From the NCBI GenBank assembly GCA_016186645.1, contig JACPLF010000007.1:75151-124650 (forward strand): a stretch of DNA of 49,500 bases, in the 5' to 3' direction. This DNA is from Candidatus Levyibacteriota bacterium. Lineage in GTDB: Bacteria; Patescibacteriota; Microgenomatia; Levybacterales; UBA12049. The notes under the pieces were generated by a model, which was not told the origin of the DNA, did no database searches, and was given only the letters and a program-made list of their open reading frames with translations. The position numbers and the translations under genes are program-made. Shown one piece after another: positions 11,768 through 26,178 of the stretch; the stretch's first letter is position 1, and every line of letters starts with the position of its first letter.

Positions 11768-13876
11768 TTATCCTTGGTGTAGGGCGTTGATAATCTCTTC
11801 AGCATTTTTTACCAATACGTCTCTTGGTTTTGATCCCTCGGCATGGCCTACAACTCCCGCTGCTTCTAACTGATCCAGAATTCGCGCAGCTCTGGAATAC
11901 CCTATTGAAAGACGTCTTTGAAGAAGTGATGCCGAAGCCCGATCATACTGACAGACTGCTCTGATAGCTTCCTCAAATAGAGCATCTTTTCCGTCATTTC
12001 CCATTGATCCGGTTTTCTTCAAAACCAATGGGGTTGTAATAACCTCCTCAGTATATTCAACAGGAGGATTTTTGGTTTTGAGAAATTCTACAAGTCTTCT
12101 TACTTCCTTATCCGAAACGAATGCTCCTTGGATACGAGTCGGTTTTGCCTGATCAGGCGGAATATACAGCATGTCTCCGCGTCCCAAAAGTTTTTCTGCA
12201 CCTGGGGTATCAAGTATAACTCGGGAGTCAATCATTGAAGAAACATTAAATGCAATTCGGCATGGAACATTTGCTTTTATAAGACCTGTTATAACATCAA
12301 CTGACGGACGCTGAGTTGAGATAATCAAATGTATCCCTGTCGCTCTTGCCATCTGCGCTAGTCTTGCAATTGCATCTTCTACTTCAACCGGAGCAAATGC
12401 CATCAAATCTGCAAGTTCATCTATCAAAATAACTATATATGGAAGAGATTGGAAACCTGCTAATTCATTATAAGAATCGATATTCCTTACTCCTCTTTCG
12501 GCAAAAGTTTTGTATCTTCTCTCCATTTCGTCCATCGCCCATTTTAAAGATGCCAGAATTTTCTCAACTTCAACAATAACAGGAGTCATCAAATGCGGTA
12601 TGCCGTTATAACCTGTTAATTCCACTCTTTTAGGATCTATCAGAATAAGTTTTACCTCGGAAGGCGAGGCCCTAAATAAAAGTGAGGCAATAAAGGAATT
12701 GATAAGAACGGATTTTCCCGAGCCAGTTGTTCCGGCAATTAAAACATGCGGCATCTTTGCGATATTTGCGACAACTGGATTACCGCTTACATCCAATCCC
12801 AATGACACGATGAGTTTGGATTTGCTTTTATTCATAATGTTTGATTCAAGCATTGTTTTTAAAGTAACTACTTCCAGACTTCTATTGGGAATTTCTATTC
12901 CAACTAAATTTCTGCCCGGAATTGGCGCTTCAATTCTAATTTGTCCAGTCGGGGCTTCTGTTGCCAAAGCAAGATCATTAGAAAGACTGGTGATTTTGGA
13001 GATTTTCGTTCCTTGAGCAATCTCCATGGCATATTGAGTAACAGCCGGACCAAGATTAACCTCAACAACTTTTGCTTTTATAGAAAAACTTTGTAAGGTT
13101 TGCTCTATGGTCGTAGCGACTTTTTTTACATCTCCTCTGTCAGCCTTTTGCGGCGTTGCATCAGACAGAAGAGAGAAAGGAGGATATTCCCAAATACCTG
13201 CTTTTGTTAAAGAGTTGCTAACTAATTGATCTGCCAAAAGAGGAGGTTCTCTCTTGATTGCAGAAGAATTAATAATGGGAGCGCTGCTGGATAAGTTGGG
13301 AAGCGTTTTCCCTCCCTTTATTTTCATTGGCTTATCGTTAAAGGATGTATTGCTTTTATTCTTAAAAAAACCAATAAGTTTGCCGGGTAAAAGTCTATGA
13401 AGATTTTTAAATATAAGTGACACAAAATCTACAATTTGATCAACTGATGTATTGAAAAATACAATTAAACCAACAAGAACGCCGGCAAAATAAACAATGC
13501 TTGCGCCTATATTTGTTAAAATATCTGACAGAATTCCAAAAAGCTCTCTTCCAACCAATCCTCCGCGAGTTATGGCATCAAGCGATAAGAAGAAAAGCAA
13601 AAATCCAATCGAAACATTTATTCCGGATAAGAATAACTTGAGTTTTAAAAATAAAAATCCAAAGAATATTAAGACAAATGGAAAAAGAAATGAAACGGAT
13701 CCAAAATATCTATCTAGAAGATTATTTATGAAAACAAAAGAAGTTCCATTTTTGGTAAAAGATAAAAGAAGAATTATTCCGGCAACTATAAATCCAAAGG
13801 CAAAAATAGAATAAATAGTTCCTTTTTTGAGCTTTAGCTTTAATCTATTTCTTCTGTATCGCTTTCTTCTAGGCAT
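11768..13876 (-). CDS. ftsK: DNA translocase FtsK/SpoIIIE (start likely ATG 13876)
   Basis: 4TM N-terminus, MPHVLIAGTTGSGKS, IDELAD, STQRPSVDV, gamma domain SASLLQRRLSIGYSRAAR. Confidence 0.96.
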   Translation of the reverse strand: MPRRKRYRRNRLKLKLKKGTIYSIFAFGFIVAGIILLLSFTKNGTSFVFINNLLDRYFGSVSFLFPFVLIFFGFLFLKLKLFLSGINVSIGFLLFFLSLDAITRGGLVGRELFGILSDILTNIGASIVYFAGVLVGLIVFFNTSVDQIVDFVSLIFKNLHRLLPGKLIGFFKNKSNTSFNDKPMKIKGGKTLPNLSSSAPIINSSAIKREPPLLADQLVSNSLTKAGIWEYPPFSLLSDATPQKADRGDVKKVATTIEQTLQSFSIKAKVVEVNLGPAVTQYAMEIAQGTKISKITSLSNDLALATEAPTGQIRIEAPIPGRNLVGIEIPNRSLEVVTLKTMLESNIMNKSKSKLIVSLGLDVSGNPVVANIAKMPHVLIAGTTGSGKSVLINSFIASLLFRASPSEVKLILIDPKRVELTGYNGIPHLMTPVIVEVEKILASLKWAMDEMERRYKTFAERGVRNIDSYNELAGFQSLPYIVILIDELADLMAFAPVEVEDAIARLAQMARATGIHLIISTQRPSVDVITGLIKANVPCRIAFNVSSMIDSRVILDTPGAEKLLGRGDMLYIPPDQAKPTRIQGAFVSDKEVRRLVEFLKTKNPPVEYTEEVITTPLVLKKTGSMGNDGKDALFEEAIRAVCQYDRASASLLQRRLSIGYSRAARILDQLEAAGVVGHAEGSKPRDVLVKNAEEIINALHQG

Positions 13877-13938
13877 AGGTATATCAACTATTATAACACC
13901 CAAAAGATGGGGCACAAGTTGAATTATAAAAGAGATTC

Positions 13939-14238
13939 CTATAATAATCTATAAAGATCGTGCTTTCCTGCTCTTAAGAGCAGCACTCGTTTGTTTTTTC
14001 TATCTACATCGTAGTATATCCTGTCCCCTTTAGATACACGAATTGTATACTCACCTAAATTATGCTCATTTATTTTCTCTATTCCTTTTACAGTATAGTC
14101 AGTGGGATTATTCCTTAATTTACTTAAAGCCTTCTCTACTTGTCTTTTTCTTCTACGATGAAGTAATTCTAATTCTCTTTTTCCTTTTCCCGAAGATGGT
14201 AATACAATCTCAAACTCATCTTTTCTTCTTTGATTCAT
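13939..14238 (-). CDS. RelE/ParE-family toxin
   Basis: Basic 99 aa protein with EYTIRVSKGDRIYYDV...VLLLRAGKHD. Confidence 0.75.
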   Translation of the reverse strand: MNQRRKDEFEIVLPSSGKGKRELELLHRRRKRQVEKALSKLRNNPTDYTVKGIEKINEHNLGEYTIRVSKGDRIYYDVDRKNKRVLLLRAGKHDLYRLL

Positions 14239-14461
14239 TAGCTTTTATAAACTGTTCCCAAGTTGATATTCTACCTTTCGAAATCAACTCTCTGGATTCA
14301 GCTACAATCTCCATGTGCTCTGCTAATATTTTTGCGTTTTCATAATTTTCACTTGTCTTTTCTAAGGGCACGATAATAAATTGAACACTGTAATCGTTAG
14401 GAGCAACTAAAGACTTAACTATTGGAATTTTTGTTTGTGGTTGATAGTTTATTATATTCAT
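14216..14461 (-). CDS. Putative antitoxin
   Basis: Small ORF overlapping the toxin gene; C-terminal 'ESRELISKGRISTWEQF' resembles antitoxin tails. Confidence 0.55.
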   Translation of the reverse strand: MNIINYQPQTKIPIVKSLVAPNDYSVQFIIVPLEKTSENYENAKILAEHMEIVAESRELISKGRISTWEQFIKANESKKKR

Positions 14462-14463
14462 AT

Positions 14464-14730
14464 TTATTCTGATTTAATCTTTCCTAAGTGACTATTCAAG
14501 ATCGCAAGCAAGTCTTTTGCAACTGGTAGAGATAAAACTACCCGTGACACCAAGGTTCCAAACTGATTTCCATCTTTACTAATATCCTGAGGATGAATAA
14601 ATACAAAATCAATTATTACCTCTCCTGTTCTTGAAGATGTGCTCACTCGAATAATATTGGCATTAACAGGTGCTCTTAAATGCTCAGGAATGTTAACTTG
14701 TAATGATTTTGGTTTTCCTGATTCATCCAT
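14464..14730 (-). CDS. DUF3467-like protein
   Basis: PV.AN...V......EVIIDF...LVSRVVLS...AK.L..IL pattern. Confidence 0.65.
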   Translation of the reverse strand: MDESGKPKSLQVNIPEHLRAPVNANIIRVSTSSRTGEVIIDFVFIHPQDISKDGNQFGTLVSRVVLSLPVAKDLLAILNSHLGKIKSE

Positions 14731-14769: not shown

Positions 14770-14827
14770 TCAGACCTCGATCACAACCGGGAGAACGAGG
14801 GGGTGGCGGCGGAGGTCTTTGAAAATT
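14770..14827 (-). repeat. Second copy of the rnj 3' end (att-like island boundary)
   Basis: Encodes IFKDLRRHPLVLPVVIEV* versus IFKDLRRRPLVLPVVIEV* at 20211-20267; 23 bp identical core. Confidence 0.93.
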
Positions 14828-16673
14828 AGTGGATTTTTAAGGAGCCTTTTGTGATTGGAGTTATTGGATCTGCATTTTCTGGGTCACCTGCTTGATTATC
14901 ATAAAATAAGTTATTTGAAGAATCGATTATCTTTATTCTAATTCTATCTGTTCCAACTTTTTTATCTTCGTCAATTACTGATATAAAAATTGCATAGCTT
15001 CCTGAACCATTAATCGTTCCTATGCCCTTAAGTACGGCTTTATTGCCATTTATTACCAGCCATTGCAAAGAAGTTGAATCAAAACTAAAGTTTCCTCCTT
15101 TGAAATCTAAATTTATTTTTCCCGCAGGCACTGTATTATTTCCATTATATTTAGCCTGTATATTAAATTTTAATTGTCCAGTTACAGTAGGATTTTGAAT
15201 ATATGCTCCTAATTGTGAATTAAATGAGCCGGAACCTGTGACAAAACCTGCGCTTGGATCATAAATAACAACGGAACTATAACTTGCAGTACCTGAAGCA
15301 CCATGGTTGTCCGTAACCGTTACGCTTACCGTATAAACTCCTGCTGCAGTGTAAGTATGAGTTCCGCTTACTGACCCTGATCCGTTATTCTCTATAACAG
15401 AACCTGCTGATGCCGTATTGTCTCCCCAATTCCACACCGCTGTATGAGTACCACCAGTGTCAGAATCTGTAAATGTTGCGCCCACTGAAATAGAAGTGTT
15501 TACAGACACTGAATCCGCAGGCGCTGTAATTGCATCAACCACCGGAGAAACATTGTCAGAATAAAGTTCAGCAATAAGAGTGTCTCCAGCACCGAGTGTA
15601 CCTCCCCCCACAACAAGCACCTTACCGTTAGGCAAAATGGTCGCTGTATGATTATTGCGAGCATAGGTCATATTTCCAGTTGAGGAAAATGTGCCAATGA
15701 CCGGATCATATAGCTCTGCAGAGGAGAGTTTATGAACACCCCCATCACTATATCCGCCAGTGATGAGCACATTGCCGTTGGATAATAATGTTGCAGTATT
15801 CGTCCAACGCCCCTGAAGCATATCCCCCGTAGTTACAGCTATGCCAGCAACAGGATCATAAAGTTCTGCTGAGTCAAGAGGAAATACATAATTGTTATAG
15901 CCACCCGCAGTTAATAATTTACCGTTTAGTAAAACTGTAGCAGTGTGATCAATGCGGGGATAAACTGAATTTCCTGCCAAAGAAAAAGTTCCATGGTTTG
16001 GATCATATATCTCCAAATTGGTACCCGGATCAGGATCAAAAACGGTTGGCCTGTTGCCGCCTATGACCAATACTTTACCATTGCTCAATAATGTAGCTGT
16101 ATGGCCATAGCGAGCATACGTTATATCTCCAGTTAGTGTAAAACTACCTGTGGCAGGATCGTAAATTTCTGTATGTCGGGTGCTGCCAATTCCGTCTGTT
16201 GATCCTCCCACAATAAGTATCTTACCGTTAGAGAGTAAAGTAGCAGTGTGTCCATTGCGACCGTAAGCCATACTGCCAGTCGGAGTGAATATGCCAGTCG
16301 CAGGATCGTATAATTCTGCCTCACCTGAAGTATGATATGCCACTATACCTCCAGCAATCAATACTTTTCCATTAGGTAATAACGTCGCTGTATTGCCATA
16401 TTGACGGGATGCAAGGAGATTGCCAGTCTGAGAAAATGTACCAACTCCTGTATCATAAAGCTCCGCTGTTGGTATACTACCATTACCACCAACAATCAAT
16501 ACTTTACCGCTAGGAAGTAGAGTAGCTGAGTGACCGCTCCGTCCATAATTCAAGCTACCAGTTGCAGTGAAGATTCCCGAAGCGTAACTAGGTATAGCTG
16601 TACCAAATAATCCAGCTATACCAATGAGACAAATCAATATTGAAACTAGAATGTTTTTAAACTTAAAAACCAT
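14826..16673 (-). CDS. Secreted Kelch-repeat (7-blade) protein with a PKD domain
   Basis: Signal peptide, seven R..HTATLL.NGKVL..GG repeats, PKD motif WNWGD...HTYTAAGVYTVSVTVTD. Confidence 0.9.
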   Translation of the reverse strand: MVFKFKNILVSILICLIGIAGLFGTAIPSYASGIFTATGSLNYGRSGHSATLLPSGKVLIVGGNGSIPTAELYDTGVGTFSQTGNLLASRQYGNTATLLPNGKVLIAGGIVAYHTSGEAELYDPATGIFTPTGSMAYGRNGHTATLLSNGKILIVGGSTDGIGSTRHTEIYDPATGSFTLTGDITYARYGHTATLLSNGKVLVIGGNRPTVFDPDPGTNLEIYDPNHGTFSLAGNSVYPRIDHTATVLLNGKLLTAGGYNNYVFPLDSAELYDPVAGIAVTTGDMLQGRWTNTATLLSNGNVLITGGYSDGGVHKLSSAELYDPVIGTFSSTGNMTYARNNHTATILPNGKVLVVGGGTLGAGDTLIAELYSDNVSPVVDAITAPADSVSVNTSISVGATFTDSDTGGTHTAVWNWGDNTASAGSVIENNGSGSVSGTHTYTAAGVYTVSVTVTDNHGASGTASYSSVVIYDPSAGFVTGSGSFNSQLGAYIQNPTVTGQLKFNIQAKYNGNNTVPAGKINLDFKGGNFSFDSTSLQWLVINGNKAVLKGIGTINGSGSYAIFISVIDEDKKVGTDRIRIKIIDSSNNLFYDNQAGDPENADPITPITKGSLKIH

Positions 16674-16717
16674 ACACTATTCGTATCAAAGTTTACTTTA
16701 CGTGTCAATGTTCAATT

Positions 16718-18472
16718 TTAAAAATCGTCAATGGGTTGATTTTTTACAATCCGATCCTGCACCTCTTTTGTATAGGCTGTAGGAAGAAGATTATAAGCAT
16801 GCGTTATTGCCTGAATTGCGTTTTGCTTATGCCCCACTTTATATTCTGCCAATGCCAATAGTATCCAAAGTTGATCATTGTTAGGAAATATTTTTAATGC
16901 CTGTTGAGCAGCTTCTAGAGATCTTTGAGAGTTATTTGCTTTTAGTAGTATGTATATTCTATTGTGATATGCCGGATAATAATGGCTGTCCATTTGAATA
17001 GCTTTACCTAAATATTTTTCAGCTTGAGATAAATTTCCTTCTCGCATAAAAACTAGACCCATACTAGAAAAGGCGGAAGCAGTCGGGAGCAAATCAATAG
17101 ATTGCTGAAAATGGTCCTTTGCTCGTTTATTGTCTCCTAAAAGATATAATTCGATGCCAAGTTTATTTTGCAAATAAAAATTGTCCCTGTTAACTAGTGC
17201 ATCGCGAGAAAACAAACTATAACTACTATTCCAATCTGTATTTCGCACTATTGATCTTAGGCAAAAAATTATGAAACAAGTAATAATAAGTATGTACATT
17301 ATTATTTTTATATTTGTATTTTTAATAGTAATTGCATTAGCACTTACTCCTATTATTCCAAGCAATCCAACCATCGGGAAATAAAACCATCGATCAGCTA
17401 CTGTCATATCCAAAGGGAAAATCTGCAAATGAAGACCCAAGCCTATTAAAAACCAAAACACGAAAAAAAGATATGTTGGAAAGTGTAATTTTTTCTTCCA
17501 AATAAACACACCAAATGCCAATAGTACTAGAAAAAAGACACCTACAATTATCAACGGTATAAAAAAATCTTTCGCGTTAAAATTCTTGACAAGCCACATT
17601 TGACCAACCGATAGGTTAACGGGAATGAAAAAAGTATAGACATAGAATAAAATAATTTTAGGAATAGTGATCAACCGCTCTAGCATTGAAGCTGTGGCAA
17701 TTGGATCAACGTGTATTGAGCTGAAATAAATTTTCCCAACAAAAAAACGTAATCCAAGATATGTTCCTATCGATAACAGTGACGTTGCAAAATACTGCTT
17801 AAACCTTTTTACATGAAATAAAAATATATAAGTGGTAACTATCACTACAAATAGTATTCCAGTTTCCTTAGACAACAAAGACGACAATAATAAAAGAGGG
17901 GTTGCAATTAAAGAGAAAAATCCTGACTGTTTTTCAGATTGATTTGCTTTAAAAACAATAAGTATTGCCAACATCCCGAAAAAGAAAAACAACACTTCTT
18001 GAACGGCGGAAATATATACTGCTGATTCAACGTTTATGGGATGGGCAAGAAATATCAAAGACAAAAAAAGAGAAAGTTTTTTGGAGAAAAAATGAGAAAA
18101 AAGAATAAAGACTAATGTTGTGTTTATAATATGAAACGCTATCTGGAAAAAATGGAAATAAAAAGCATTTTGGCCAAACACAGTGTAAATTGAAGAGAAA
18201 AAAATCGTCATAAAAGGCTTGTAATATGTACCAGCTAATTGGTCTACGTTATTGCCTGGATCAAAAGTCCCACCTGCAAAAAAGCCAACAATATTCTGTA
18301 TTGAATGAGCTTTTGTGTTATTTATAATTTGTCCTACGTCGTCCCAGACAAAGCCATTGAAAAGAGAATTGAAAAAAACGATAAATCCGAGAATAATAAT
18401 GATATAAATTGCTTTGGGTATAGTTAAGGGATTAAAAAAATTAAGGAAGGGCTCTTGCTCCTTTTCATTCAT
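16718..18472 (-). CDS. TMTC-like (DUF1736) GT-C protein O-glycosyltransferase with C-terminal TPRs
   Basis: NGFVWDD, Y(K)P, HPINVESAVYIS, ADRWFYFP, RNTDW, TPR helices. Confidence 0.85.
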   Translation of the reverse strand: MNEKEQEPFLNFFNPLTIPKAIYIIIILGFIVFFNSLFNGFVWDDVGQIINNTKAHSIQNIVGFFAGGTFDPGNNVDQLAGTYYKPFMTIFFSSIYTVFGQNAFYFHFFQIAFHIINTTLVFILFSHFFSKKLSLFLSLIFLAHPINVESAVYISAVQEVLFFFFGMLAILIVFKANQSEKQSGFFSLIATPLLLLSSLLSKETGILFVVIVTTYIFLFHVKRFKQYFATSLLSIGTYLGLRFFVGKIYFSSIHVDPIATASMLERLITIPKIILFYVYTFFIPVNLSVGQMWLVKNFNAKDFFIPLIIVGVFFLVLLAFGVFIWKKKLHFPTYLFFVFWFLIGLGLHLQIFPLDMTVADRWFYFPMVGLLGIIGVSANAITIKNTNIKIIMYILIITCFIIFCLRSIVRNTDWNSSYSLFSRDALVNRDNFYLQNKLGIELYLLGDNKRAKDHFQQSIDLLPTASAFSSMGLVFMREGNLSQAEKYLGKAIQMDSHYYPAYHNRIYILLKANNSQRSLEAAQQALKIFPNNDQLWILLALAEYKVGHKQNAIQAITHAYNLLPTAYTKEVQDRIVKNQPIDDF

Positions 18473-18522
18473 GATCTTATGCTACTACTATAAAGTACGC
18501 GTTTCAACATCGGAATTAGTTG

Positions 18523-20156
18523 TTATTTTCTTTTGAAAACTACAACCCGTGAATTATTAGTTATTAATTCATATTTTTTATTATTACTTAAAGATTCTAA
18601 ATTTTCATCGATAGCCTTAACATTAGTTAAAACTGGTGGCATAAGCAAATTAACAACAACGTAGTCAGAGGTTTCATTTTCAACTGGAATTGATTTAACT
18701 TTTCCAAAAGATCTATAAATATGGGGAACAATCTGATATTGTGTTGATACTGATGCATCTTTGGGTATTTGGTTTATAACATCATTCAATACTAATAAGT
18801 TTTCATCAGGCAGAGTTTTTTGTCGTCCGATGTCATAAATAGAATACGCATGATAACCGTTAATTGTGTTTGCAGCAAAAGCTACATAAAAAATTAAAAT
18901 TCCAAAAAAAATGTTCCAATGGGGAATAATTCGTTGAACATAATTTTTTTTAGAAATAGACATTAAAGATTCTATAGTTGCAACAACGATAACACCAGTT
19001 AGCGCTGCGCTATAATGTGTCCCGCTAATTCCTGCAAGGTTAGAACTTAACAGTTTTATTAATAAAGAAGGTATAACGATAATTAATGCCGGTGGATACA
19101 AAAATGACAAAAAAGAAAAAGATCCAAACGAAAGAAAAATAGTATCAACTTTGTAGCTTGGGTTTACCAATGTATTAAAGAAGATATATGGCTGAAAAAC
19201 TAATAACTTGATAATCCCCATAAGTCCAGTTCCTTCTGCTGATCCATATTGCCCCCAATGCCCAAAACCTCCATCTGAGAAACGAGGGAATATTAGTTGG
19301 AAACACAAAAAATACCAGAGTAATGACGCTAAGAATGTTCCAATGCCTATGGCCTTTTCTTTCTTAAATAGTACAAGGTAAAAGCTCCAAAACAATAGAA
19401 TGAATGCTACCTCCTCTTTTACGAATAGGCACAATAACACAAAAAGAAAATATAATTTTATTTTTTTCTTCGTATAAAAATAGTACATCCAGAAAAGTAA
19501 CGTAGGCAGAAACATTATTGGATGAAAACCGTATTCAGTGCCATACTGTAACCCTCCGAAGGCAATATAAGAAAAAGCTATTGCCAGGCCGATCAACCTT
19601 GATTTCAGCCTATCATTTACAATAAGATAAAGAGGAATTATCCCTGATATTACAATTCCCGCCTGGATTATCATCAAAAGTCCTGCAGATTTTATAAACC
19701 AATAAATTGGCGCTATAAAAAGAATAATTGGCTCAAAATGGTCTCCCCACACAAATCTTTGGGTATATCCCAAATACGAGGAGTCTGAAATTCCGAAAGT
19801 TGCCAAATGGCAGAATGATAATATGTAAGATCAACTACTTCAGACACGAACGAAACATATCTGGAATATGTAACAACCAGTAAAAATAAAGCATAAATCA
19901 CCAAGCCTATTTTTAACAATAGTAAGATAATTTCCTTTTTATGTGTGTCCATGACTCTGGCAAAAGAGCTAATGGAAAATAAAGCTACTATTAATCCAAC
20001 GACAACAAATAAGATGTAATTTAATTCGACATTTCTAACTATGGTATCAGGGAATTTACGTACCAGATGAAGATAGGAAGGTGGAAGTAAAATAAAAAAA
20101 GAGGTAATAAAAAATATTATTGTATTTTTAAAATTGAAAAGACCCTCTTTTTTCAT
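18523..20156 (-). pseudogene. DUF2079-like GT-C membrane protein split by a frameshift near 19760
   Basis: ORF 19713-20156 (DL.YYHSAIW) continues one base out of frame into ORF 18523-19806 (GDHFEP, FHP, KEE). Confidence 0.7.
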
Positions 20157-20162
20157 AACAAA

Positions 20163-20191
20163 AGTATTTCAGAAGCAAGGAGACATGTCAA
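20163..20191 (-). promoter_or_regulatory. Putative leaderless sigma70 promoter of the first island gene
   Basis: TTGACA-N17-AATACT-N6-ATG. Confidence 0.5.
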
Positions 20192-20210
20192 CATATGCCT
20201 TATTGCTTAT

Positions 20211-21890
20211 TTACACCTCAATCACAACCGGAAGAACCAGAGGACGGCGGCGGAGGTCTTTGAAAATTCTTCTTTCGGCTACTTCTCCAATTAATTTTCT
20301 TATATAAATCCAATTTGTAACTCTTGCTTTGTGAGGGTTAAGCGCTTTATGAAAATCGTGCATCAGCCTTGAATTCAATCTCTTTGAATCGTACGCAGAT
20401 GGAGCAAGTCCTCTGATAATAACATCAGGATTTCCAACCAGCTGCCCGTTATTACTATCCACCTCTGCAAGAATTATAATTATTCCTGCTTCTGAAAGTT
20501 TTTGTCTGTCTCGCAAAACAAAACTCTCTAATTCTTCTCCTGACATTTCATCAACATAGACATTCTTAACCTGTATTGTTCTGCCAAGCTTAACATCTCC
20601 ATTTCCAAACAGGAGTTCCTGCCCGTCTTCCAGCAAAAGAACATCATTTTTTTTATATCCTAATTTTTCAGCCATTTTTTTATATGCAAACATGTGTCTG
20701 AATTGTCCTCCGATTGGAATAAGTTTTTTAGGTTTAACTAAATTTATTAATTGTTCTAACTCATCCAATGATCCGTGCCCTGATACATGAAAATCCCGAT
20801 TAACCGGCGAATAAATAACTTTTACCCCTCTTCGAGTCAATGTATCTACTAACTCATAAACGGAAGTTTCATTACCGGGAATTGGGTCCGAGGAAAATAT
20901 AATTACGTCTTCTTCTCTTAACTTAACATCTCTGTGCTCACCATTGGCAATTCTAGTTAATGCAGAATTTTCCTGTCCCTGGCTTCCTGCAACAATTAAT
21001 GTTAATTTATTGTCCGGATAATTTCTTGATGCATCTATTTCTACTTCTATATCTTTTTTCAAATTAAGATATCCCAAATTTCTTGCCACTTCTGTATTTT
21101 TGACAAGAGAACGGCCTACAAAACAAACTCTCCGTCCGTTTTTACTTGATGCGTCAATTATTTGATTCAGTCTTGAAATATTAGAGGAGTAAGTGGTTAC
21201 AATAAATTTTCCGCGACAATCTCTCATTTCCCGATCAAAATGTTCTGTTAAACCAATTTCCGAGGGCGTTCTTCCTTCTCTTTCTGCTCCCAAACAATCA
21301 GACAGCAAGCACATCGTACCTGTTAGGCCTGCTTTTTCAATTTTCCCATAATCAGTTAATTTTTTATCGTAGGGGGTCTCATCAAATTTAAAATCCGATC
21401 CGTGATAAAAATTACCAACTGGAGTTTTTATAAAAATGTGTGAAGTGTCAGGGATGGAATGCGTTACAGGAATAAAAGAAAAACTAAAGCTCCCAACACT
21501 TTTTTCTGGTTCGTTAAAATTAACAACTTGTACTGTTTTTTTAGTATTAAATTCTTTTAATTTTTCGTTTGCAAATCCGGCTGCCAATGGAGTTGCAAAT
21601 ATTGGAAAGTCGGAAAGCTGGGGCAAAAGAAACGGAAGGGCTCCGATATGATCTTCGTGACCATGAGTTAAGAGCATTCCAGCAATTCGCTTTTTTGCCT
21701 TGCCTGCCGGCAGGCAGGTTTTCAATAAATATGAAATGTCCGGCAATAGCAAATCGACTCCGAGCATCGATTCATCGGCAAAACCCAACCCACAATCAAC
21801 GATTAATATCTGATCGTTGTATTCATACAAATACATATTTTTTGTGACATCTCCGATTCCGCCTAGAGGAATAAAAGATAAGGTATTCAT
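20211..21890 (-). CDS. rnj: Ribonuclease J
   Basis: PLGGIGDVTKNM, THGHEDHIG, GSQGQ, HVSGH, RRPLVLPVVIEV. Confidence 0.96.
   Translation of the reverse strand: MNTLSFIPLGGIGDVTKNMYLYEYNDQILIVDCGLGFADESMLGVDLLLPDISYLLKTCLPAGKAKKRIAGMLLTHGHEDHIGALPFLLPQLSDFPIFATPLAAGFANEKLKEFNTKKTVQVVNFNEPEKSVGSFSFSFIPVTHSIPDTSHIFIKTPVGNFYHGSDFKFDETPYDKKLTDYGKIEKAGLTGTMCLLSDCLGAEREGRTPSEIGLTEHFDREMRDCRGKFIVTTYSSNISRLNQIIDASSKNGRRVCFVGRSLVKNTEVARNLGYLNLKKDIEVEIDASRNYPDNKLTLIVAGSQGQENSALTRIANGEHRDVKLREEDVIIFSSDPIPGNETSVYELVDTLTRRGVKVIYSPVNRDFHVSGHGSLDELEQLINLVKPKKLIPIGGQFRHMFAYKKMAEKLGYKKNDVLLLEDGQELLFGNGDVKLGRTIQVKNVYVDEMSGEELESFVLRDRQKLSEAGIIIILAEVDSNNGQLVGNPDVIIRGLAPSAYDSKRLNSRLMHDFHKALNPHKARVTNWIYIRKLIGEVAERRIFKDLRRRPLVLPVVIEV
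21698..21718. repeat. Palindrome (family C), in frame in rnj (TCLPAGKA)
   Basis: Perfect 16 bp TGCCTGCCGGCAGGCA at 21701-21716. Confidence 0.8.
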
Positions 21891-23175: not shown

Positions 23176-23508
23176 TTATATAATAAATAGTGCGCAGATA
23201 TTTTTTAAAACCGCATTTTTAGTTTTTGTAGTTAATTGACCGACGGTCTTTTTTATAATACTCGTGTCTGCTGTAAACAATTTATCCGGTCGAACGTAAC
23301 TGATAACTGGTAAGCCGCCTGTTACAAAATCAGCCGGCTTAAGACAGATTGATATTTTGCTTGTATACGGTTTTGAAGTAATTTGACACAGAATAAGGTT
23401 ATTAAATTCAACGTTCGCCAAAACAAGAGCCGGGCGTACTTTCTGACCTTTTAAATTAGAGAATGGAAACGTAACGAGGACAACACTGCCTATTGTAAAC
23501 TTGCCCAT
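23176..23508 (-). CDS. PemK/MazF-family toxin
   Basis: GSVVLVTFPFSNL..QKVRPALV...CQITS. Confidence 0.9.
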   Translation of the reverse strand: MGKFTIGSVVLVTFPFSNLKGQKVRPALVLANVEFNNLILCQITSKPYTSKISICLKPADFVTGGLPVISYVRPDKLFTADTSIIKKTVGQLTTKTKNAVLKNICALFII

Positions 23509-23729
23509 GCTTTGTCCTCCTCCGGCCGATTCCAGTCACGACCGAGTATTTTCTCTGATAACAATAGCGTATCAGCCACAGATTTATCTTTCGTGGGCGC
23601 TGCAATAATTCGTATCTCACCCTTTTTTACCCGTAATTCAACTTTATCTTCAAGGCCGCTTTCGCTAATCAACGGCTTAGGTATGCGTATCCCGCGAGAG
23701 TTTCCTATCGGAATTAATGTTGTTATCAT
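23490..23729 (-). CDS. AbrB/MazE-family antitoxin (79 aa, ATG 23729)
   Basis: IGNSRGIRIPK; C-terminal DWNRPEEDKAW; overlaps the toxin start. Confidence 0.88.
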   Translation of the reverse strand: MITTLIPIGNSRGIRIPKPLISESGLEDKVELRVKKGEIRIIAAPTKDKSVADTLLLSEKILGRDWNRPEEDKAWASLQ

Positions 23730-23738
23730 AGTAATTAC

Positions 23739-23767
23739 ATTGTATATACCAATAATGGCTTTGTCAA
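23739..23767 (-). promoter_or_regulatory. sigma70 promoter of the mazEF-like module
   Basis: TTGACA-N17-TACAAT directly after the pnp stop. Confidence 0.75.
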
Positions 23768-23769
23768 GT

Positions 23770-26178
23770 TTAATAGTGGGGTTTGCGGAAGCGGGAGCCT
23801 CCCGGACGAGATCCCAAAGCAGCACCCCCCGGAGTTCTTCTGTCTCTCCAGTTGCCCCCGGTTCTGGTCGGTCCTTGGGAAAAACGCTCTCTTCTGAATT
23901 GTCTGGACAAAGGGTGCTCGGAGGGAGTCGTGGGAACAGGGCCTTGTTCTCCTGTTGGCTGAGATAACACATTCCAGGTCCCACGCCTGTCTTCACTTTC
24001 GCTTCGCAGGCGAGCTCGGTCGCCGCCTTCGGCTCCCTGCGCTCCAAATAACATTGATAAGTTAGTTCTTCCCTGTTCGTCGATTTCTACAACTTTAACT
24101 TTAACTTTCTGTCCGATCTGTACCACATCTGTTGGATTGCGGACAAATCCCTCTTTCATTTTGGATACATGAACCATTCCTTCTTTTCCTGGAAGATATT
24201 CAACAAATGCTCCAAAAGGAAGTATTCTTTTTACCTCAGCGTCTTCAAAAATTTCTCCAACCTTTACTTCTCGGGTAATGCCCTTGACCCACTCAACTGC
24301 TTTCGCAACTGCGTTTTCATCTGTTCCTGAAATAGTTACCACTCCTGAATCTTCAACATCTACAGCTGCGCCAGTTGTTGCAATTATATTTTTGATAACT
24401 CGTCCGCCCGGCCCGATAACTTCGCCGATTTTATCAACTGGAATTTGAACTTGTTCTATTTTTGGAGCATACTCTGAAATACCTTTTCTGGTAGTTCCAA
24501 CAACTGCAATCATTTTCTCAAGAATAAATAATCTTGCCTTTTTTGCTTTCTCAAAAACTTCTTTGATTTGTTCTATTGTAAGTCCTAAAATTTTTACATC
24601 CAGCTGAATTGCTGTAATTCCACTATCTGTCCCTGCAACTTTAAAATCCATATCTCCTGAAAAATCTTCAAGTCCCAAAATATCTGTCAATATAACATAT
24701 TTTGCCCCATCCGAAATCATTCCCATTGCAATCCCGGCAACTGGTTTTTTGATTGGAACTCCCGCATCCATAAGAGCCAGTGTTGATCCGCAAGCTGCTG
24801 CCATTGACGTTGAACCATTGGAAGAAAGAATTTCTGAAACAACTCTAATTGTATAAGGAAATTCTGTTTGTGTTGGGATAACAGCCATTATTGCTCTCTC
24901 ACCCAAAGCTCCATGTCCTATTTCCCGTCGCGATGTAAACCCAAATCTCCCGGCCTCTCCAACTGAATATGGAGGCATATTATAGTGATGGATGTATTTT
25001 TTGGATTCTTCTCCTTCTGCAGATTCTATTAATTGTTCCAAACGGGGAGAACCCAAAGTCACAATTGTCAAAGCCTGAGTATCTCCCCTATTAAATATTG
25101 CTGATCCGTGAGTTCTTGGGAGAACCGCAACTTGACATGAGATTGGCCTTATTTCGGAAGCCGTTCTTCCATCAGGTCTCACTCCTTTAACCAAAGTTGT
25201 CTCTCTGAGGTTTTTGAACATTACATATTCAACAGCTTTTGCAATTAATTTTTTATCAAATTCGAAATCTGGAGCCTGTCCTGAGCCTGCCGAACGGGTT
25301 TTTTCTTGTTCAATAATTTTATCTATAAAGTCTTCGGCATCTCCACTTGATTCTTTATTAACTCTGTTTTTAATCATTCCAACGATTTCATCTTTGTATG
25401 ATTTTTCCAAAAGTGCAATTAATTCCTGATATTCTGTGTTTGGCTTAACTTCTTCTTTCTTTGCTCCATTTTTCTTGGCGAAATCTTCAATGAAATTGAT
25501 AATTTTATCGTTTTCGTTTTGTGCTTTTTTAATTGCATCAAGTGCTATATCTTCTGAGACTTGCAAAGCTCCTGCTTCAAGCATCAAAGTTTTACTCCTC
25601 AAACTGGTGACAATTAAATCCAATTCTGAAAGTTCGGATTCTGCAACTCCGGGATTAACAATAAATCCTTGCCCTGAGCCCGCCGAAGGGTCTTTTTCTT
25701 TAACATATCCAATTCTGACTGCTCCAACCGGACCCTTCCAGGGAATTGGGGAAATTGCCAGTGCTGCTGAAGTAGCAACAACCGCTAAAACATCAGGAGA
25801 ATTGTCTCCATCTACTGATAAAATTGTGGCAATTATCTGTACTTCTTTTTTGAATTCTTTTGGAAAAAGGGGTCTGACAGATCGATCTATGAGACGAGCT
25901 GATAAAATCGCGTCATCTGTTGGTCTTCCTTCTCTTTTTACCCATCTACTTCCTTTGATTCTTCCTCCCGCATACAGTCTTTCGACATATTCAACAGTGA
26001 GCGGGAAATAATCAATATCTGATCTTTCTTTTCCCATGACAACAGTTACCAAAACCATGGTATCTCCAAGACGGGCTAGAACAGAAGAAGTTGCGAGTTT
26101 CGCAAGATTTCCTATTTCTAATGTTAAGGTTTTTCCGCCAATCTCTAGGGTTGCTGTAATCTTTTTATTTGTAATCAT
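23770..26178 (-). CDS. pnp: Polyribonucleotide nucleotidyltransferase with a ~90 aa Arg/Gly-rich C-terminal tail
   Basis: FPLTVEY, RTHGSA, RREIGHG, SNGSTSMA, GDMDFKVAGT, KH and S1 domains. Confidence 0.97.
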   Translation of the reverse strand: MITNKKITATLEIGGKTLTLEIGNLAKLATSSVLARLGDTMVLVTVVMGKERSDIDYFPLTVEYVERLYAGGRIKGSRWVKREGRPTDDAILSARLIDRSVRPLFPKEFKKEVQIIATILSVDGDNSPDVLAVVATSAALAISPIPWKGPVGAVRIGYVKEKDPSAGSGQGFIVNPGVAESELSELDLIVTSLRSKTLMLEAGALQVSEDIALDAIKKAQNENDKIINFIEDFAKKNGAKKEEVKPNTEYQELIALLEKSYKDEIVGMIKNRVNKESSGDAEDFIDKIIEQEKTRSAGSGQAPDFEFDKKLIAKAVEYVMFKNLRETTLVKGVRPDGRTASEIRPISCQVAVLPRTHGSAIFNRGDTQALTIVTLGSPRLEQLIESAEGEESKKYIHHYNMPPYSVGEAGRFGFTSRREIGHGALGERAIMAVIPTQTEFPYTIRVVSEILSSNGSTSMAAACGSTLALMDAGVPIKKPVAGIAMGMISDGAKYVILTDILGLEDFSGDMDFKVAGTDSGITAIQLDVKILGLTIEQIKEVFEKAKKARLFILEKMIAVVGTTRKGISEYAPKIEQVQIPVDKIGEVIGPGGRVIKNIIATTGAAVDVEDSGVVTISGTDENAVAKAVEWVKGITREVKVGEIFEDAEVKRILPFGAFVEYLPGKEGMVHVSKMKEGFVRNPTDVVQIGQKVKVKVVEIDEQGRTNLSMLFGAQGAEGGDRARLRSESEDRRGTWNVLSQPTGEQGPVPTTPSEHPLSRQFRRERFSQGPTRTGGNWRDRRTPGGAALGSRPGGSRFRKPHY
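23984..24044. repeat. Two adjacent GC-rich hairpins forming the start of the PNPase tail
   Basis: CGCCTG...CAGGCG and GAGC..GG...GCCTTCGGC..CC..GCTC. Confidence 0.5.
25275..25298. repeat. Palindromic repeat family A, in frame in pnp (RSAGSGQ)
   Basis: CCTGTCCTGAGCCTGCCGAACGGG. Confidence 0.8.
25668..25690. repeat. Palindromic repeat family A, in frame in pnp (PSAGSGQ)
   Basis: CTTGCCCTGAGCCCGCCGAAGGG. Confidence 0.85.

Follow-up and report, generated by a model that had tools for sequence, protein, structure and literature searches.

An island bordered by two copies of the rnj 3′ end, and recurrent cassette insertion between rnj and ftsK in a groundwater CPR bacterium and its relatives

The window analyzed here is a stretch of 49,500 nucleotides from Candidatus Levyibacteriota bacterium, a tiny, uncultivated groundwater bacterium of the candidate phyla radiation (CPR) in which rnj, the gene for RNase J, is essential. 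Downstream of rnj the window carries a 5.4 kb segment (14828-20210), a second copy of the rnj 3′ end, further small genes and ftsK. The features are listed below in the direction of transcription.

20211..21890, minus strand: rnj (RNase J, 559 aa), the target gene; Pfam RNase_J_b_CASP, RNase_J_C, Lactamase_B and RMMBL
20211..20268, minus strand: live rnj end (last 18 codons and stop), with the core at 20246-20268; from a repeat search and comparison with genome G006
20163..20191, minus strand: promoter-like site (TTGACA, 17 nt, AATACT, with TG) between the rnj stop and the DUF2079 start; consensus match only
19713..20156, minus strand: DUF2079-family membrane protein, N-terminal piece (147 aa), ended by a frameshift; from homologue comparison
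18523..19806, minus strand: DUF2079-family membrane protein, C-terminal piece (427 aa); Pfam DUF2079
16718..18472, minus strand: polytopic membrane protein (584 aa) whose C-terminal part has TPR repeats; Pfam TPR families
14826..16673, minus strand: protein of 615 aa with Kelch repeats, a PKD domain and a hydrophobic segment near the N-terminus; Pfam Kelch_1-6 and PKD
14770..14827, minus strand: orphan (displaced) rnj end, 18 codons and TGA, with the core at 14805-14827; from a repeat search and string comparison
14464..14730, minus strand: DUF3467 protein (88 aa), first gene of an older distal cassette; Pfam DUF3467, E 1.4e-6
13939..14461, minus strand: two small ORFs (81 aa and 99 aa) that overlap each other and may encode an antitoxin and a RelE/YoeB-like toxin; weak NCBIfam matches for the 99-aa ORF
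13877..13938, minus strand: relic of the ancestral rnj-ftsK spacer (AACTTGT ... TATAAT) before the conserved ftsK ATG at 13876
11768..13876, minus strand: ftsK, the conserved downstream neighbor; Pfam FtsK_SpoIIIE, alpha and gamma domains

The source genome (G000) has a single rnj gene, and the rnj end is found in it in just these two copies. Read on the minus strand, the sequences are IFKDLRRHPLVLPVVIEV-TGA for the orphan and IFKDLRRRPLVLPVVIEV-TAA for the live end. The repeat search paired 14774-14827 with 20215-20268 (54 nt, 89% identity, spacing 5441). An earlier note on this DNA described the orphan at 14770-14826 as a recoded second rnj end with 8 differences in 57 nt, a description confirmed by our own recount on the strings. 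Six of the differences are at third positions, with C in the orphan every time, one is at a second position (CGT to CAC, R to H) and one is in the stop. The identical 23-nt core pointed out in the same note (14805-14827 = 20246-20268) was also recovered; it occurs exactly twice in the window, and two matches were obtained in 0 of 100 dinucleotide shuffles even when up to two mismatches were allowed. The Kelch stop codon (14826-14828) does lie on the edge of the core, as had been noted, and overlaps the repeat edge by 2 nt. The peptide encoded by the repeat corresponds to the conserved C-terminus of RNase_J_C (Pfam). In the live copy this terminus is kept and translation continues as far as TAA, thus the substitute end brought by the insert leaves the rnj reading frame intact. 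The 3′ terminus of the orphan, GTC-TGA, is the same as that of the live end in the nearest relative, L075. Both repeat junctions are bridged without mismatch by independently built Logan contigs in all four public runs that hold the stretch, runs that belong to one study and are possibly the source samples themselves. The chimeric assembly at either repeat that the earlier note named as a danger to its reading was thus not seen.

The island cargo consists of membrane and repeat proteins. The C-terminal piece of the DUF2079 protein matches Pfam DUF2079 with an E value of 2e-49 over profile positions 43-458 of 459. The homologues are encoded by one ORF each (552-681 aa), while in the window the two ORFs overlap at 19713-19806; a variant in run X3 with one extra base behind 19761 rejoins the frames. 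The promoter-like site upstream of DUF2079 had the top score in a consensus scan and its TTGACA is also present in G006 and L077. The TPR membrane protein is found only in the window's version of the island and is missing between DUF2079 and Kelch in G006 and L077, but homologues adjoin DUF2079 in G129 and G136. The Kelch/PKD gene has a GC content of 0.43-0.46, compared with about 0.36 for the genome.

Beyond the orphan lies the older distal cassette. Homologues of its DUF3467 protein were sought in the rnj-ftsK intervals of relatives and none were found. The 99-aa ORF has weak NCBIfam matches to Txe/YoeB (E 3.5e-4) and to RelE/ParE, both under the cut-offs, and a profile search with the 81-aa ORF gave no match; the two may form an antitoxin/toxin pair. 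The spacer relic before ftsK was recognized from its counterparts in G003, whose site is empty, and in G004, G002 and G001. The presence of an older cassette and a spacer relic beyond the orphan indicates that the array grew by successive insertions beside rnj.

The island is also held by a relative, G006, in which its DNA is about 90-92% identical to that of the window (92.5-92.7% for DUF2079, 88.7% for the 3′ 864 nt of Kelch). The flanking genes are far less similar, with DNA identities of 79.7% (rnj), 78.5% (ftsK), 77.3% (lon) and 76.2% (rodZ), and third-position identity is 54-62% in the flanks versus 85-87% in DUF2079. Identity to G006 climbs from about 78% to more than 90% across 20300-20200. 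At the other border the Kelch-orphan junction is homologous between the two genomes, the homology ends at the orphan stop codon and the DNA beyond is unrelated. An island closer than its flanks, with a switch of identity at the two repeats, indicates that the island moved between species. Judged from these sequence comparisons, 14828-20210 was acquired horizontally, as an island that entered rnj within its last ~57 nt. The incoming DNA evidently brought its own rnj end, and the resident end, displaced 5.4 kb downstream, evidently survives as the orphan; the live end at 20211-20268 was probably imported together with the island. Over their last 35 nt the orphans of the window and G006 differ at nine sites, nearly all synonymous or in the stop, while over their first 22 nt they differ at six sites (16/22 identical), mostly non-synonymous. 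The first 23 nt of the window's orphan equal the window's own live end. The proposal that the copies diverged in different genomes is borne out by the closeness of the island relative to its flanks, the switch at the repeats and the almost entirely synonymous differences in the 3′ 35 nt of the orphan.

Other relatives show a different picture. The nearest relative, L075, is without the island. L077 has DUF2079-Kelch between rnj and ftsK at a divergence like that of its flanks (82% versus 78-83%) and has no intact orphan, but it retains half a terminator hairpin at the expected orphan position (by-eye comparison), which suggests that the orphan was deleted later. Cargo inherited without the duplication, which the earlier note regarded as evidence against its reading, is therefore seen in L077 as far as the missing intact orphan goes, but the half hairpin points to later loss. 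The distal contexts in the window, G006 and L077 are wholly different.

The rnj-ftsK interval was compared across relatives, as the earlier note had proposed, and empty sites, different cargo and further rnj-end copies were all found. ftsK is located downstream of rnj in 12 of 15 regions from relatives, and rnj followed by ftsK evidently is the ancestral order. The gap is about 60-180 nt in six of these 12 relatives (the empty sites of G003, G013, G024, G020, G015 and G017); in the other six it spans 0.75-4.3 kb and its content is unrelated. In 46 metagenome loci with both landmarks the gap is less than 150 nt in 23, which count as empty sites too, 150-1000 nt in 10 and at least 1 kb in 13. 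Varied cargo and extra rnj ends are present in the gap of six of the seven genomes of the genus, with one to three displaced ends per genome, and in further metagenome loci; an intact extra end was found in 7 of 80 metagenome loci. Extra ends or remnants occur in G001, G002, G004, G005 and G006, and G172 has three copies. Arrays with two or three rnj ends were observed in G002, G005/L086 and G172, three being the maximum (G172 and G005/L086). In G004, G002 and G001 an rnj-end remnant sits directly on the ancestral spacer known from the empty site of G003. The cassettes range from 0.1 to 5 kb, and G001 and L104 carry them in permuted order. The duplicated unit runs past the stop in some relatives and reaches a terminator-like hairpin and a ~200-nt element. 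Different cargo together with displaced rnj ends in the gap indicates that cassettes stack in tandem, and the insertion process has apparently been repeated many times in the genus and also in a few other lineages of the family. The earlier note's view of rnj as an integration hotspot is supported by the conserved adjacency, the empty gaps, the varied cargo and the extra ends. Its further suggestion that cassettes accrete in tandem between rnj and ftsK agrees with the arrays of up to three ends and with the older cassette past the orphan.

The island was described as having no integrase, and the searches agree. No recombinase family was detected in the seven window ORFs (four in the island and three distal) or in 29 ORFs from the intervals of relatives and metagenomes, 20 of which were chosen by size and position from 102 metagenome-interval ORFs of at least 100 aa. 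Searching for integrases beside rnj-end copies had also been advised, and a tblastn search of 80 metagenome loci with the genome's own recombinases gave no matches. No related integrative conjugative or mobilizable element (ICE/IME) with an integrase was found in the intervals of 15 genome loci or the 80 metagenome loci, and there are no phage or conjugation genes at the locus. No sign of excision was seen in Logan contigs, in which rare forms are invisible. The genome encodes one large serine recombinase (CcrB/XisF-like), on contig C10 away from the locus. The other genomes of the genus that bear arrays lack an orthologue of it, and the other genus genomes give only relatives with 24-29% identity, all in G003, or short fragments. 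No extra rnj end was found outside the rnj-downstream arrays in 194 genomes. In a set of 245 genomes the second matches examined (G143 and G213, with G148 left out) are second full rnj genes, and an IMG/VR search with the rnj end gave no matches.

How, then, could cassettes enter at one gene end so many times? The earlier note allowed for either a recombinase in trans or short-homology recombination. The reading preferred here, to which slightly less than even confidence is attached, is that the insertions were made by recombination anchored on rnj homology. DNA from relatives would be taken up and processed by the cell's own recombination, with the rnj gene as the long homologous anchor. A second, short arm would be supplied by the rnj terminus, which is short, GC-rich and highly conserved; located at the distal edge of the incoming DNA, it would pair with the rnj end of the recipient. 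The resulting order would be rnj body, donor end, cargo, an end that is either hybrid or the recipient's, and the old downstream DNA. A dedicated integrase would not be needed, and each displaced end could be used as an arm for the next transfer. The genome encodes a ComEC-type Competence domain (E 7.5e-49) and RecA (E 1.9e-130) in profile searches, and the MutS_V profile had no match in this 95% complete metagenome-assembled genome (MAG), a type of assembly that often misses episomes. An excerpt of PMC6382021 describes homology-facilitated illegitimate recombination (HFIR) as RecA-dependent and 40-100 fold higher without MutS above 15% divergence. The window and G006 have the expected arrangement: the rnj gene on one side, a 25-57 nt rnj-end copy on the other and unrelated DNA beyond. 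This single comparison suggests different joints or later conversion. Across genomes the left edges of the orphans lie 25 to 57 nt before the stop, a range that erosion could explain too; a joint of varying position suits homologous exchange. A duplicated unit that reaches the hairpin and the ~200-nt element resembles a piece of donor chromosome.

Several observations weigh against homologous exchange and bring in site-specific integration, which is judged somewhat less likely. In this alternative the attP of the elements mimics the rnj 3′ end, and exchange is catalyzed by a tyrosine or serine recombinase, either in trans from a gene on an unbinned phage, plasmid or helper, or formerly in cis from a gene that was then deleted; the arrays would be CIME-like remnants formed by tandem accretion. 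The architecture is exactly that of attL and attR after such integration: target-end direct repeats that coincide with the island borders, a 23-nt identical block on the upstream side and, after it, a gene end that replaces the original and keeps the ORF. The empty sites in relatives and the tandem arrays agree with it as well. By our own inspection about 8 of 14 orphans have left edges in a narrow range, 45-57 nt ahead of the stop, and the left boundary of the one dated transfer, between G000 and G006, falls within ~100 nt of the rnj stop, for which we calculate a coincidence of ~6% if exchange can occur anywhere in the 1.7-kb gene. The Leu codon in P-L-V is CTC in 4 of 7 empty-site ends, 6 of 9 orphans and 1 of 14 live ends at occupied sites (our own count, in genomes that are related and not independent), a distribution that fits native orphans and imported live ends. 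The short arm has a length of just 25-57 nt and an identity of 75-90%, an illegitimate or site-specific event is still needed for the first duplication, and the absence of MutS and of an integrase is read from MAGs, often without episomes. Precedents for site-specific integration are the accretion of CIMEs, which have lost integration and transfer genes but kept att-like sites (excerpt of PMC5704250), and e14 in icd with its icdC fragment (excerpt of PMC13626634). Site-specific integration has to contend with the lack of an integrase in the 36 ORFs scanned and the 80 loci, the lack of an off-array copy of the site in the genome sets and IMG/VR described above, and a sole large serine recombinase that the other array-bearing genomes of the genus do not share. 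In addition, the element-side arm is only 16/22 identical despite ~90% island identity and the window's arm equals its own rnj, a pattern that fits a fixed crossover point poorly.

Two further explanations were considered. IMEX elements have no integrase of their own and form tandem arrays, and cassettes of this kind could use host XerC/D-like recombinases with the rnj end as a dif-like site. Two Xer-like tyrosine recombinases are encoded in the genome (best NCBIfam matches XerC/XerD, under the equivalog cut-offs) and ftsK adjoins the site. Use of Xer is nevertheless very unlikely: the repeat is coding sequence in which a two-arm palindrome was not seen by eye, and on contig C5 (244 kb) the GC skew is negative over nearly all of ~230 kb with no global switch near the locus (~90-95 kb), which indicates that the site is not at the terminus. 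The other explanation is that nothing moved, the cargo being old and vertical and the orphan a diverged leftover of an in-situ tandem duplication, or an assembly artefact. L077, with DUF2079-Kelch at flank-like divergence and without an intact orphan, would agree with this, but the explanation is scarcely credible. It is contradicted by an island far closer than its flanks between G000 and G006 and by junctions bridged by contigs in four runs. The wholly different distal contexts and the lack of the island in L075 also argue against it, and duplication in place would copy cargo and begin with identical ends.

Recombination anchored on rnj and its site-specific alternative can be set beside known systems. 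The CIMEs at the fda 3′ end (ICESt1/ICESt3 family, Streptococcus thermophilus) likewise have no integration or transfer genes, are bordered by repeats of a housekeeping gene end and stack in tandem. However, the genomes and loci searched here gave no related ICE or IME with a cognate integrase, conjugation genes are lacking, the small cassettes (0.1-5 kb) reside in a CPR bacterium and the position of the joint appears variable. Staphylococcal SCCmec and pseudo-SCC elements at the 3′ end of rlmH (orfX) form composite arrays with direct repeats, and some members rely on Ccr in trans. Like the rnj arrays they target the last codons of a housekeeping gene and include members without a recombinase, but the rnj repeats are longer, diverged coding sequence, and the CcrB/XisF-like gene of G000 lies elsewhere and has no orthologue in the other array-bearing genomes. 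In E. coli, e14 and phage 21 provide icd with a substitute 3′ end and displace the icdC pseudogene, with mainly synonymous differences, and excision yields a functional chimeric gene (excerpt of PMC13626634). The rnj island shares the substitute end, the displaced end at the far border and the synonymous differences; e14, however, has its own integrase and excises on SOS induction, whereas the rnj island has no integrase and no phage genes. HFIR likewise inserts foreign DNA by means of a long homologous anchor and a very short match and is favored by the absence of MutS (excerpt of PMC6382021), but its joints are scattered and usually delete recipient DNA. In the rnj arrays a single conserved gene end always provides the short arm, so that joints fall repeatedly at one place, the end is duplicated and the arrays are ordered. 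Integrons also have small promoter-proximal cassettes, mostly of 1-3 genes, with a repeated site between them and the newest next to the entry point. An integron was rejected here: there is no tyrosine recombinase at the locus, no IntI, attI or attC-type imperfect palindrome was found, and the repeated site is rnj coding sequence.

CPR bacteria have very small genomes, and to our knowledge their routes of gene exchange are largely unknown. The locus provides a dated, bounded cassette transfer between species whose flanking genes are just ~78% identical, and the rnj site allows many independent events to be compared at one place. If an integrase is involved, rnj would be an attachment site for which a limited literature search found no description, and a CPR mobile-element family would still be there to find. 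It is tentatively proposed, with confidence somewhat short of even, that Levybacteria-like CPR bacteria gain accessory genes by integrase-free cassettes, in which the conserved, GC-rich rnj terminus at the edge of every cassette would be a portable arm. RecA would splice in DNA from other species at one precise place, the donor's end would restore the gene and the old end would stay behind as an arm for a further exchange, giving an ordered, integron-like array. If no integrase takes part, uptake and homologous recombination at a conserved gene end would suffice to produce ordered arrays of cassettes, and this would be a simple route to accessory genes such as those for surface proteins, toxin-antitoxin pairs and defence-like ATPases in organisms where mobile-element enzymes are few.

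The last 18 codons and the stop of rnj are repeated at 14770-14826 of the window, and a repeat search returned the pair as a direct repeat of 54 nt (14774-14827 and 20215-20268, 89% identity, 5441 nt apart). The displaced copy is called the orphan here and the functional 3' end (20211-20268) the live end; both lie on the minus strand, and the ~5.4 kb between them (14828-20210) form the island. The features around rnj, in minus-strand order, are:

rpsO, pnp, a small toxin-antitoxin-like pair and a gene for a Lon-like AAA protein (-), in this order upstream of rnj
20211-21890 (-), rnj, with Pfam domains RNase_J_b_CASP, RNase_J_C, Lactamase_B and RMMBL
20163-20191, promoter-like site between rnj and the DUF2079 gene
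after the promoter-like site, DUF2079-family membrane protein, frameshifted and so present as two ORFs, of 147 aa and 427 aa
16718-18472, membrane protein with TPR repeats (584 aa), after the DUF2079 pieces
between the TPR gene and the orphan, Kelch/PKD protein (615 aa)
14770-14827 (-), orphan rnj end, between the Kelch and DUF3467 genes
beyond the orphan, DUF3467 protein
after the DUF3467 gene, two small ORFs, the 99-aa one with weak YoeB/RelE matches below cut-offs
13877-13938, spacer relic of 62 nt, followed by ftsK and then a RodZ-like gene

The orphan and the live end differ at 8 of 57 nt. Six of the differences are at third positions, all C in the orphan, and the remaining two are a second-position change (R to H) and the stop (TAA in the live end, TGA in the orphan); 6 of the 7 sense-codon differences thus fall at third positions (binomial P ~0.007). 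A core of 23 nt is identical (14805-14827 and 20246-20268). The window contains it exactly two times, a number reached in none of 100 shuffles, and the stop codon of the Kelch ORF (14826-14828) overlaps the repeat edge. The earlier note had described a synonymously recoded duplicate of the rnj end, with this core and the Kelch stop at its edge, and sequence, repeat search and shuffles show it to be right in every detail. The genome (880 kb in 11 contigs, 95% complete) has one rnj gene and the rnj end in just two copies. Chimeric assembly at the repeats had been named as a danger; however, contigs assembled independently from four public groundwater runs, all of one study and possibly the source samples, bridge both junctions with zero mismatches. 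Logan contigs of the four runs contain neither a circle junction nor a joint that leaves out 14827-20268, but such contigs drop rare forms and are therefore uninformative on excision; three joints were set aside in this comparison because their sides were only 21-22 letters. The Kelch gene has a GC content of 0.43-0.46, compared with 0.35-0.38 for the contigs, and no Rfam family was found in the window.

Several smaller variations were observed in the window itself. The two DUF2079 ORFs overlap at 19713-19806, and a contig from run X3 (depth 5.7 of 15.2) carries one extra base behind 19761 that, read on the sequence, rejoins both frames into a gene of about homologue length; intact and frameshifted alleles therefore seem to coexist. 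At 19616 the window has T and the contigs of all four runs have A at full depth; the deposited assembly may have a consensus error here or carry a fixed difference. Run X4 contains a second strain at higher depth (56.7), whose Kelch gene has 40 differences and 2 indels over 14884-16141. Its contig diverges from the window left of 14884, and coexisting strains may therefore differ in where the island ends on its 3' side. Upstream, the PNPase ORF (pnp, 23770-26178, 802 aa) has a GC-rich (0.49-0.51) tail rich in Arg, Gly and Pro at its C-terminus (23770-24100); the peptide SAGSGQ occurs twice within the protein, and relatives align up to the ORF end.

The rnj-ftsK gap was compared across relatives. 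ftsK follows rnj in 12 of the 15 regions compared, the other three being a contig end (G006) and two regions, G018 and G012, whose range includes no ftsK. Six genomes (G003, G013, G024, G020, G015 and G017) have a gap of ~60-180 nt. It measures 0.75-1.1 kb in G004, G002 and G021, and 1.7, 3.9 and 4.3 kb in G014, G001 and G011, respectively; the ORFs that fill it are mutually unrelated. A search of metagenome contigs with the rnj protein gave 80 loci. Of the 46 with both landmarks, 23 have a gap below 150 nt, 10 one of 150-1000 nt and 13 one of at least 1 kb, sizes that are approximate because ftsK starts were extrapolated. The 102 interval ORFs of at least 100 aa from metagenome loci form 80 clusters. 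The cargo includes GNAT acetyltransferases, a MORC-like ATPase, a SocA/Panacea antitoxin domain, MerR and winged-helix regulators, exonucleases, a signal peptidase, a short-chain dehydrogenase (SDR), DUF3800, a Fic protein, a reprolysin-like peptidase and toxin-antitoxin-like pairs named by eye. Since small gaps are common and the fillings unrelated, the empty junction is ancestral and the gap is an insertion hotspot with varied contents. The proposal that rnj is such a hotspot is borne out by these regions and loci, where empty sites, differing cargo and further rnj ends are all present.

Two other observations concern variable gaps. In L072 (1375-8635; G143:C52, another genus) the rnj-ftsK gap is 7.2 kb; Pfam identifies an IS200-like Y1 transposase adjoining rnj, and by eye there are ORFs resembling a type IB topoisomerase, an exonuclease, FKBP, PEBP and a winged-helix ATPase. 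A second variable position is found two genes upstream of rnj, where at 23176-24047 the window has, between pnp and the Lon-like gene, a PemK/MazF-like ORF (110 aa, named by eye) with a small ORF upstream. The PemK-like gene is also in G001 (87% identity), and in G004, G003 and G006 pnp is directly followed by the Lon-like gene.

Extra rnj ends were found in six of the seven genomes of the window's genus, the exception being G003, an empty site. There is one in the window genome (G000), one in G006 and two each in G002 and G005, together with one short remnant in G004 and several degenerate ones with indels in G001. G172, from another genus, has three copies in 2.2 kb. A 21-nt degenerate pattern of the terminus matches 93 of 194 family genomes, with two or more matches only in G000, G002, G004, G006 and G172; the reversed pattern gave 2 matches in total. 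With a 33-nt pattern, two matches within one array of tandem cassettes occurred only in G000, G002 and G006 among 245 genomes of the order. Second matches in G143 and G213 were rejected as orphans because they are second full-length rnj genes (G148 was left out). An intact extra end is present in seven of the 80 metagenome loci (L085-L087, L091, L094, L099 and L103), although genomes and loci are not independent rows, as G001 is L093 and G005 is L086, each at 100% identity. A class-level profile search with PF17770, whose counts cover rnj C-domains only since the HMM is blind to 18-codon orphans, gave one C-domain per genome in 338 of 401 genomes. Over 13 orphan/live pairs there are 5, 3 and 48 differences at codon positions 1, 2 and 3 (50 synonymous and 5 non-synonymous codons), but this set is biased, as most orphans were found by a peptide or degenerate pattern demanding conserved residues and the cut-off for homologous extent is crude, and the test is not relied on.

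In G004, G002 and G001 a remnant stands directly before a spacer, and the same spacer follows the rnj stop at the empty site of G003. The displaced copy is therefore the original end, still on its original downstream DNA. The window keeps only a relic of the spacer, and its arrangement requires at least two successive insertions, the DUF3467 cassette first and the 5.4-kb island second. Native ends have thus been displaced and arrays have grown in tandem, to as many as three rnj ends, as the earlier note had suggested might happen with cassettes between rnj and ftsK.

In several relatives live or displaced ends are followed by a terminator-like hairpin (arms ATCCTGAA / TTCAGGAT and a T run) and then by a GC-rich element of ~200 nt with long internal hairpins; the arms of the hairpins co-vary between copies. 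This arrangement was seen at L075:10645-10880, at L104:1270-1510 and about 3440-3770, in the interval of L040 (G001) and in L084, and is absent from the window. Rfam has no family for the GC-rich element (a single match, E 0.83, was ignored).

The island has moved between species. In G006 the order is rnj, DUF2079, Kelch, orphan, an unrelated AAA/DUF4143 ATPase and ftsK, without the TPR gene. DNA identity to the window is 79.7% for rnj, 78.5% for ftsK, 77.3% for lon and 76.2% for rodZ, against 92.5-92.7% for DUF2079 (over the 720 nt available) and 88.7% for Kelch (3' 864 nt). At third codon positions the four flanking genes are 54-62% identical and DUF2079 85-87%; the difference is therefore one of age and not of constraint. 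Along the sequence, identity is 72-88% within rnj (~80% on average), ~78% immediately before the repeat, 87% across the final 60 nt of rnj and 90-98% past the stop, and on the distal side homology stops at the stop codon of the orphan. The transfer is thus bounded by the repeats. The island is missing from L075, whose flanking genes are the closest to those of the window (82-83% identity). L077 is a third carrier, with an intact DUF2079 gene (555 aa) and Kelch at flank-like divergence; it has no intact orphan, and our own comparison places an apparent 3' half of the terminator hairpin there, followed by the spacer. One cassette therefore adjoins rnj in three genomes, in three distal contexts. 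Against the genome contigs, the DUF2079 protein matched one distant locus (42% identity).

The TPR gene is within the island in the window only, DUF2079 being directly followed by Kelch in G006 and L077, a difference of 1.8 kb with no repeat to mark it. The homologues of the DUF2079 and TPR genes in G129 and G136 are divergent neighbours, away from rnj.

The junction of Kelch stop and orphan is homologous in the window and G006, where the 57-nt left edge is shared and an indel of 5 nt follows the stop. Between the two orphans, 15 of the 57 positions differ. Nine differences are in the last 35 nt, in third positions or the stop except for one second position, which is the pattern to be expected if these were the native, once functional ends of two species. 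Most of the 6 differences within the first 22 nt change the amino acid (ISEIF in the G006 copy), and the first 23 nt of the window orphan equal its own live end. The contrast between the halves therefore places a recombination joint inside the repeat; either its position differs between the two lineages or later conversion overwrote it. The window orphan ends in GTC-TGA, as does the live end of L075, and the Leu codon of P-L-V is CTC in 4 of 7 empty-site ends, 6 of 9 orphans and 1 of 14 live ends at occupied sites, counts that come from related genomes. Both the GTC-TGA match and the CTC distribution suggest native orphans and, at occupied sites, imported live ends.

A recombinase was sought in the intervals and elsewhere. 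Pfam found no integrase, resolvase or recombinase domain in the seven window ORFs between rnj and ftsK or in 29 ORFs of other intervals. These 29 comprise 20 of the 102 metagenome-interval ORFs, selected for their size and position, and nine from G006, G172, G011, G001, G004 and G143. The window genome encodes two Xer-like tyrosine recombinases and, on another contig, one CcrB/XisF-like large serine recombinase, and none of these had a tblastn match in the 80 loci. The absence of an integrase noted earlier therefore holds for the window interval and, by Pfam and tblastn, for the ORFs and loci searched elsewhere. As a trans-acting enzyme the serine recombinase on C10 is a poor candidate, since other array-bearing genomes of the genus have no orthologue. 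No rnj-end copies were found outside arrays in the MAGs examined (194 family genomes, and the order set with G143 and G213 and without G148), and a viral attP was rejected, the 33-nt pattern having 0 matching stretches in IMG/VR. The serine recombinase (L155, C10:8109-9845, 579 aa) is the only large one of the window genome. Short matches to its residues ~496-530 (58-93% identity) occur in G001, G002, G003, G005 and G006, and its gene appears to read into, or sit inserted in, conserved host sequence.

How were the cassettes inserted? We tentatively propose, at a probability a little short of even, homology-anchored recombination with DNA that the cells acquired from relatives. The long homologous arm would be rnj, and the rnj-like repeat at the far edge of a cassette would be a short arm pairing with the recipient's own end; this would insert donor end and cargo and leave a hybrid or native orphan. 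Counted in its favour are the integrase found nowhere searched, the apparently variable joint, the permuted cassette order of G001 and L104, and a duplicated unit that can reach past the stop into the hairpin and ~200-nt element at ~70% identity, as donor chromosomal DNA would. The window genome (95% complete) also encodes RecA and a ComEC-type domain, and MutS was not found in it; without MutS, recombination beyond 15% divergence is raised 40-100-fold, according to PMC6382021.

The architecture is equally the textbook one for site-specific integration, in which the attP of an element mimics the rnj end and the integrase was lost, as in CIME-like remnants (cis-mobilizable elements) that grow by accretion, or acts in trans. 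The clustering of orphan left edges 45-57 nt before the stop and the left boundary of the window-G006 transfer, within ~100 nt of the rnj stop, also speak for an att site, and this explanation is rated only somewhat less probable than homology-anchored recombination. Because GC skew has no global switch near the locus, a Xer/dif mechanism acting at the rnj end is improbable. In-situ duplication or an artefact is contradicted by the junctions bridged in four runs and by the gap in identity to G006 between island and flanks. The enzyme behind the insertions is one that we infer, unlike the hotspot, the end displacement, the tandem growth and the transfer.

Islands in gene 3' ends with a substitute end, and integrase-less att-flanked tandem remnants, are of an already known kind. 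The element e14 in icd, whose attP mimics the gene end (PMC13626634), is the model for site-specific insertion, and CIMEs, integrase-less att-flanked remnants growing by accretion (PMC5704250), are the model for the variant with a lost integrase. In a limited literature search none of the papers listed mentioned rnj, let alone in connection with integration sites, and a search on genomic islands and integrases of the candidate phyla radiation found none bearing on it. What is new is rnj as the target gene, the host group and the consistent lack of an integrase across ~30 occupied sites, and there is a hint that the array is itself of a new sort, homology-driven and integron-like.
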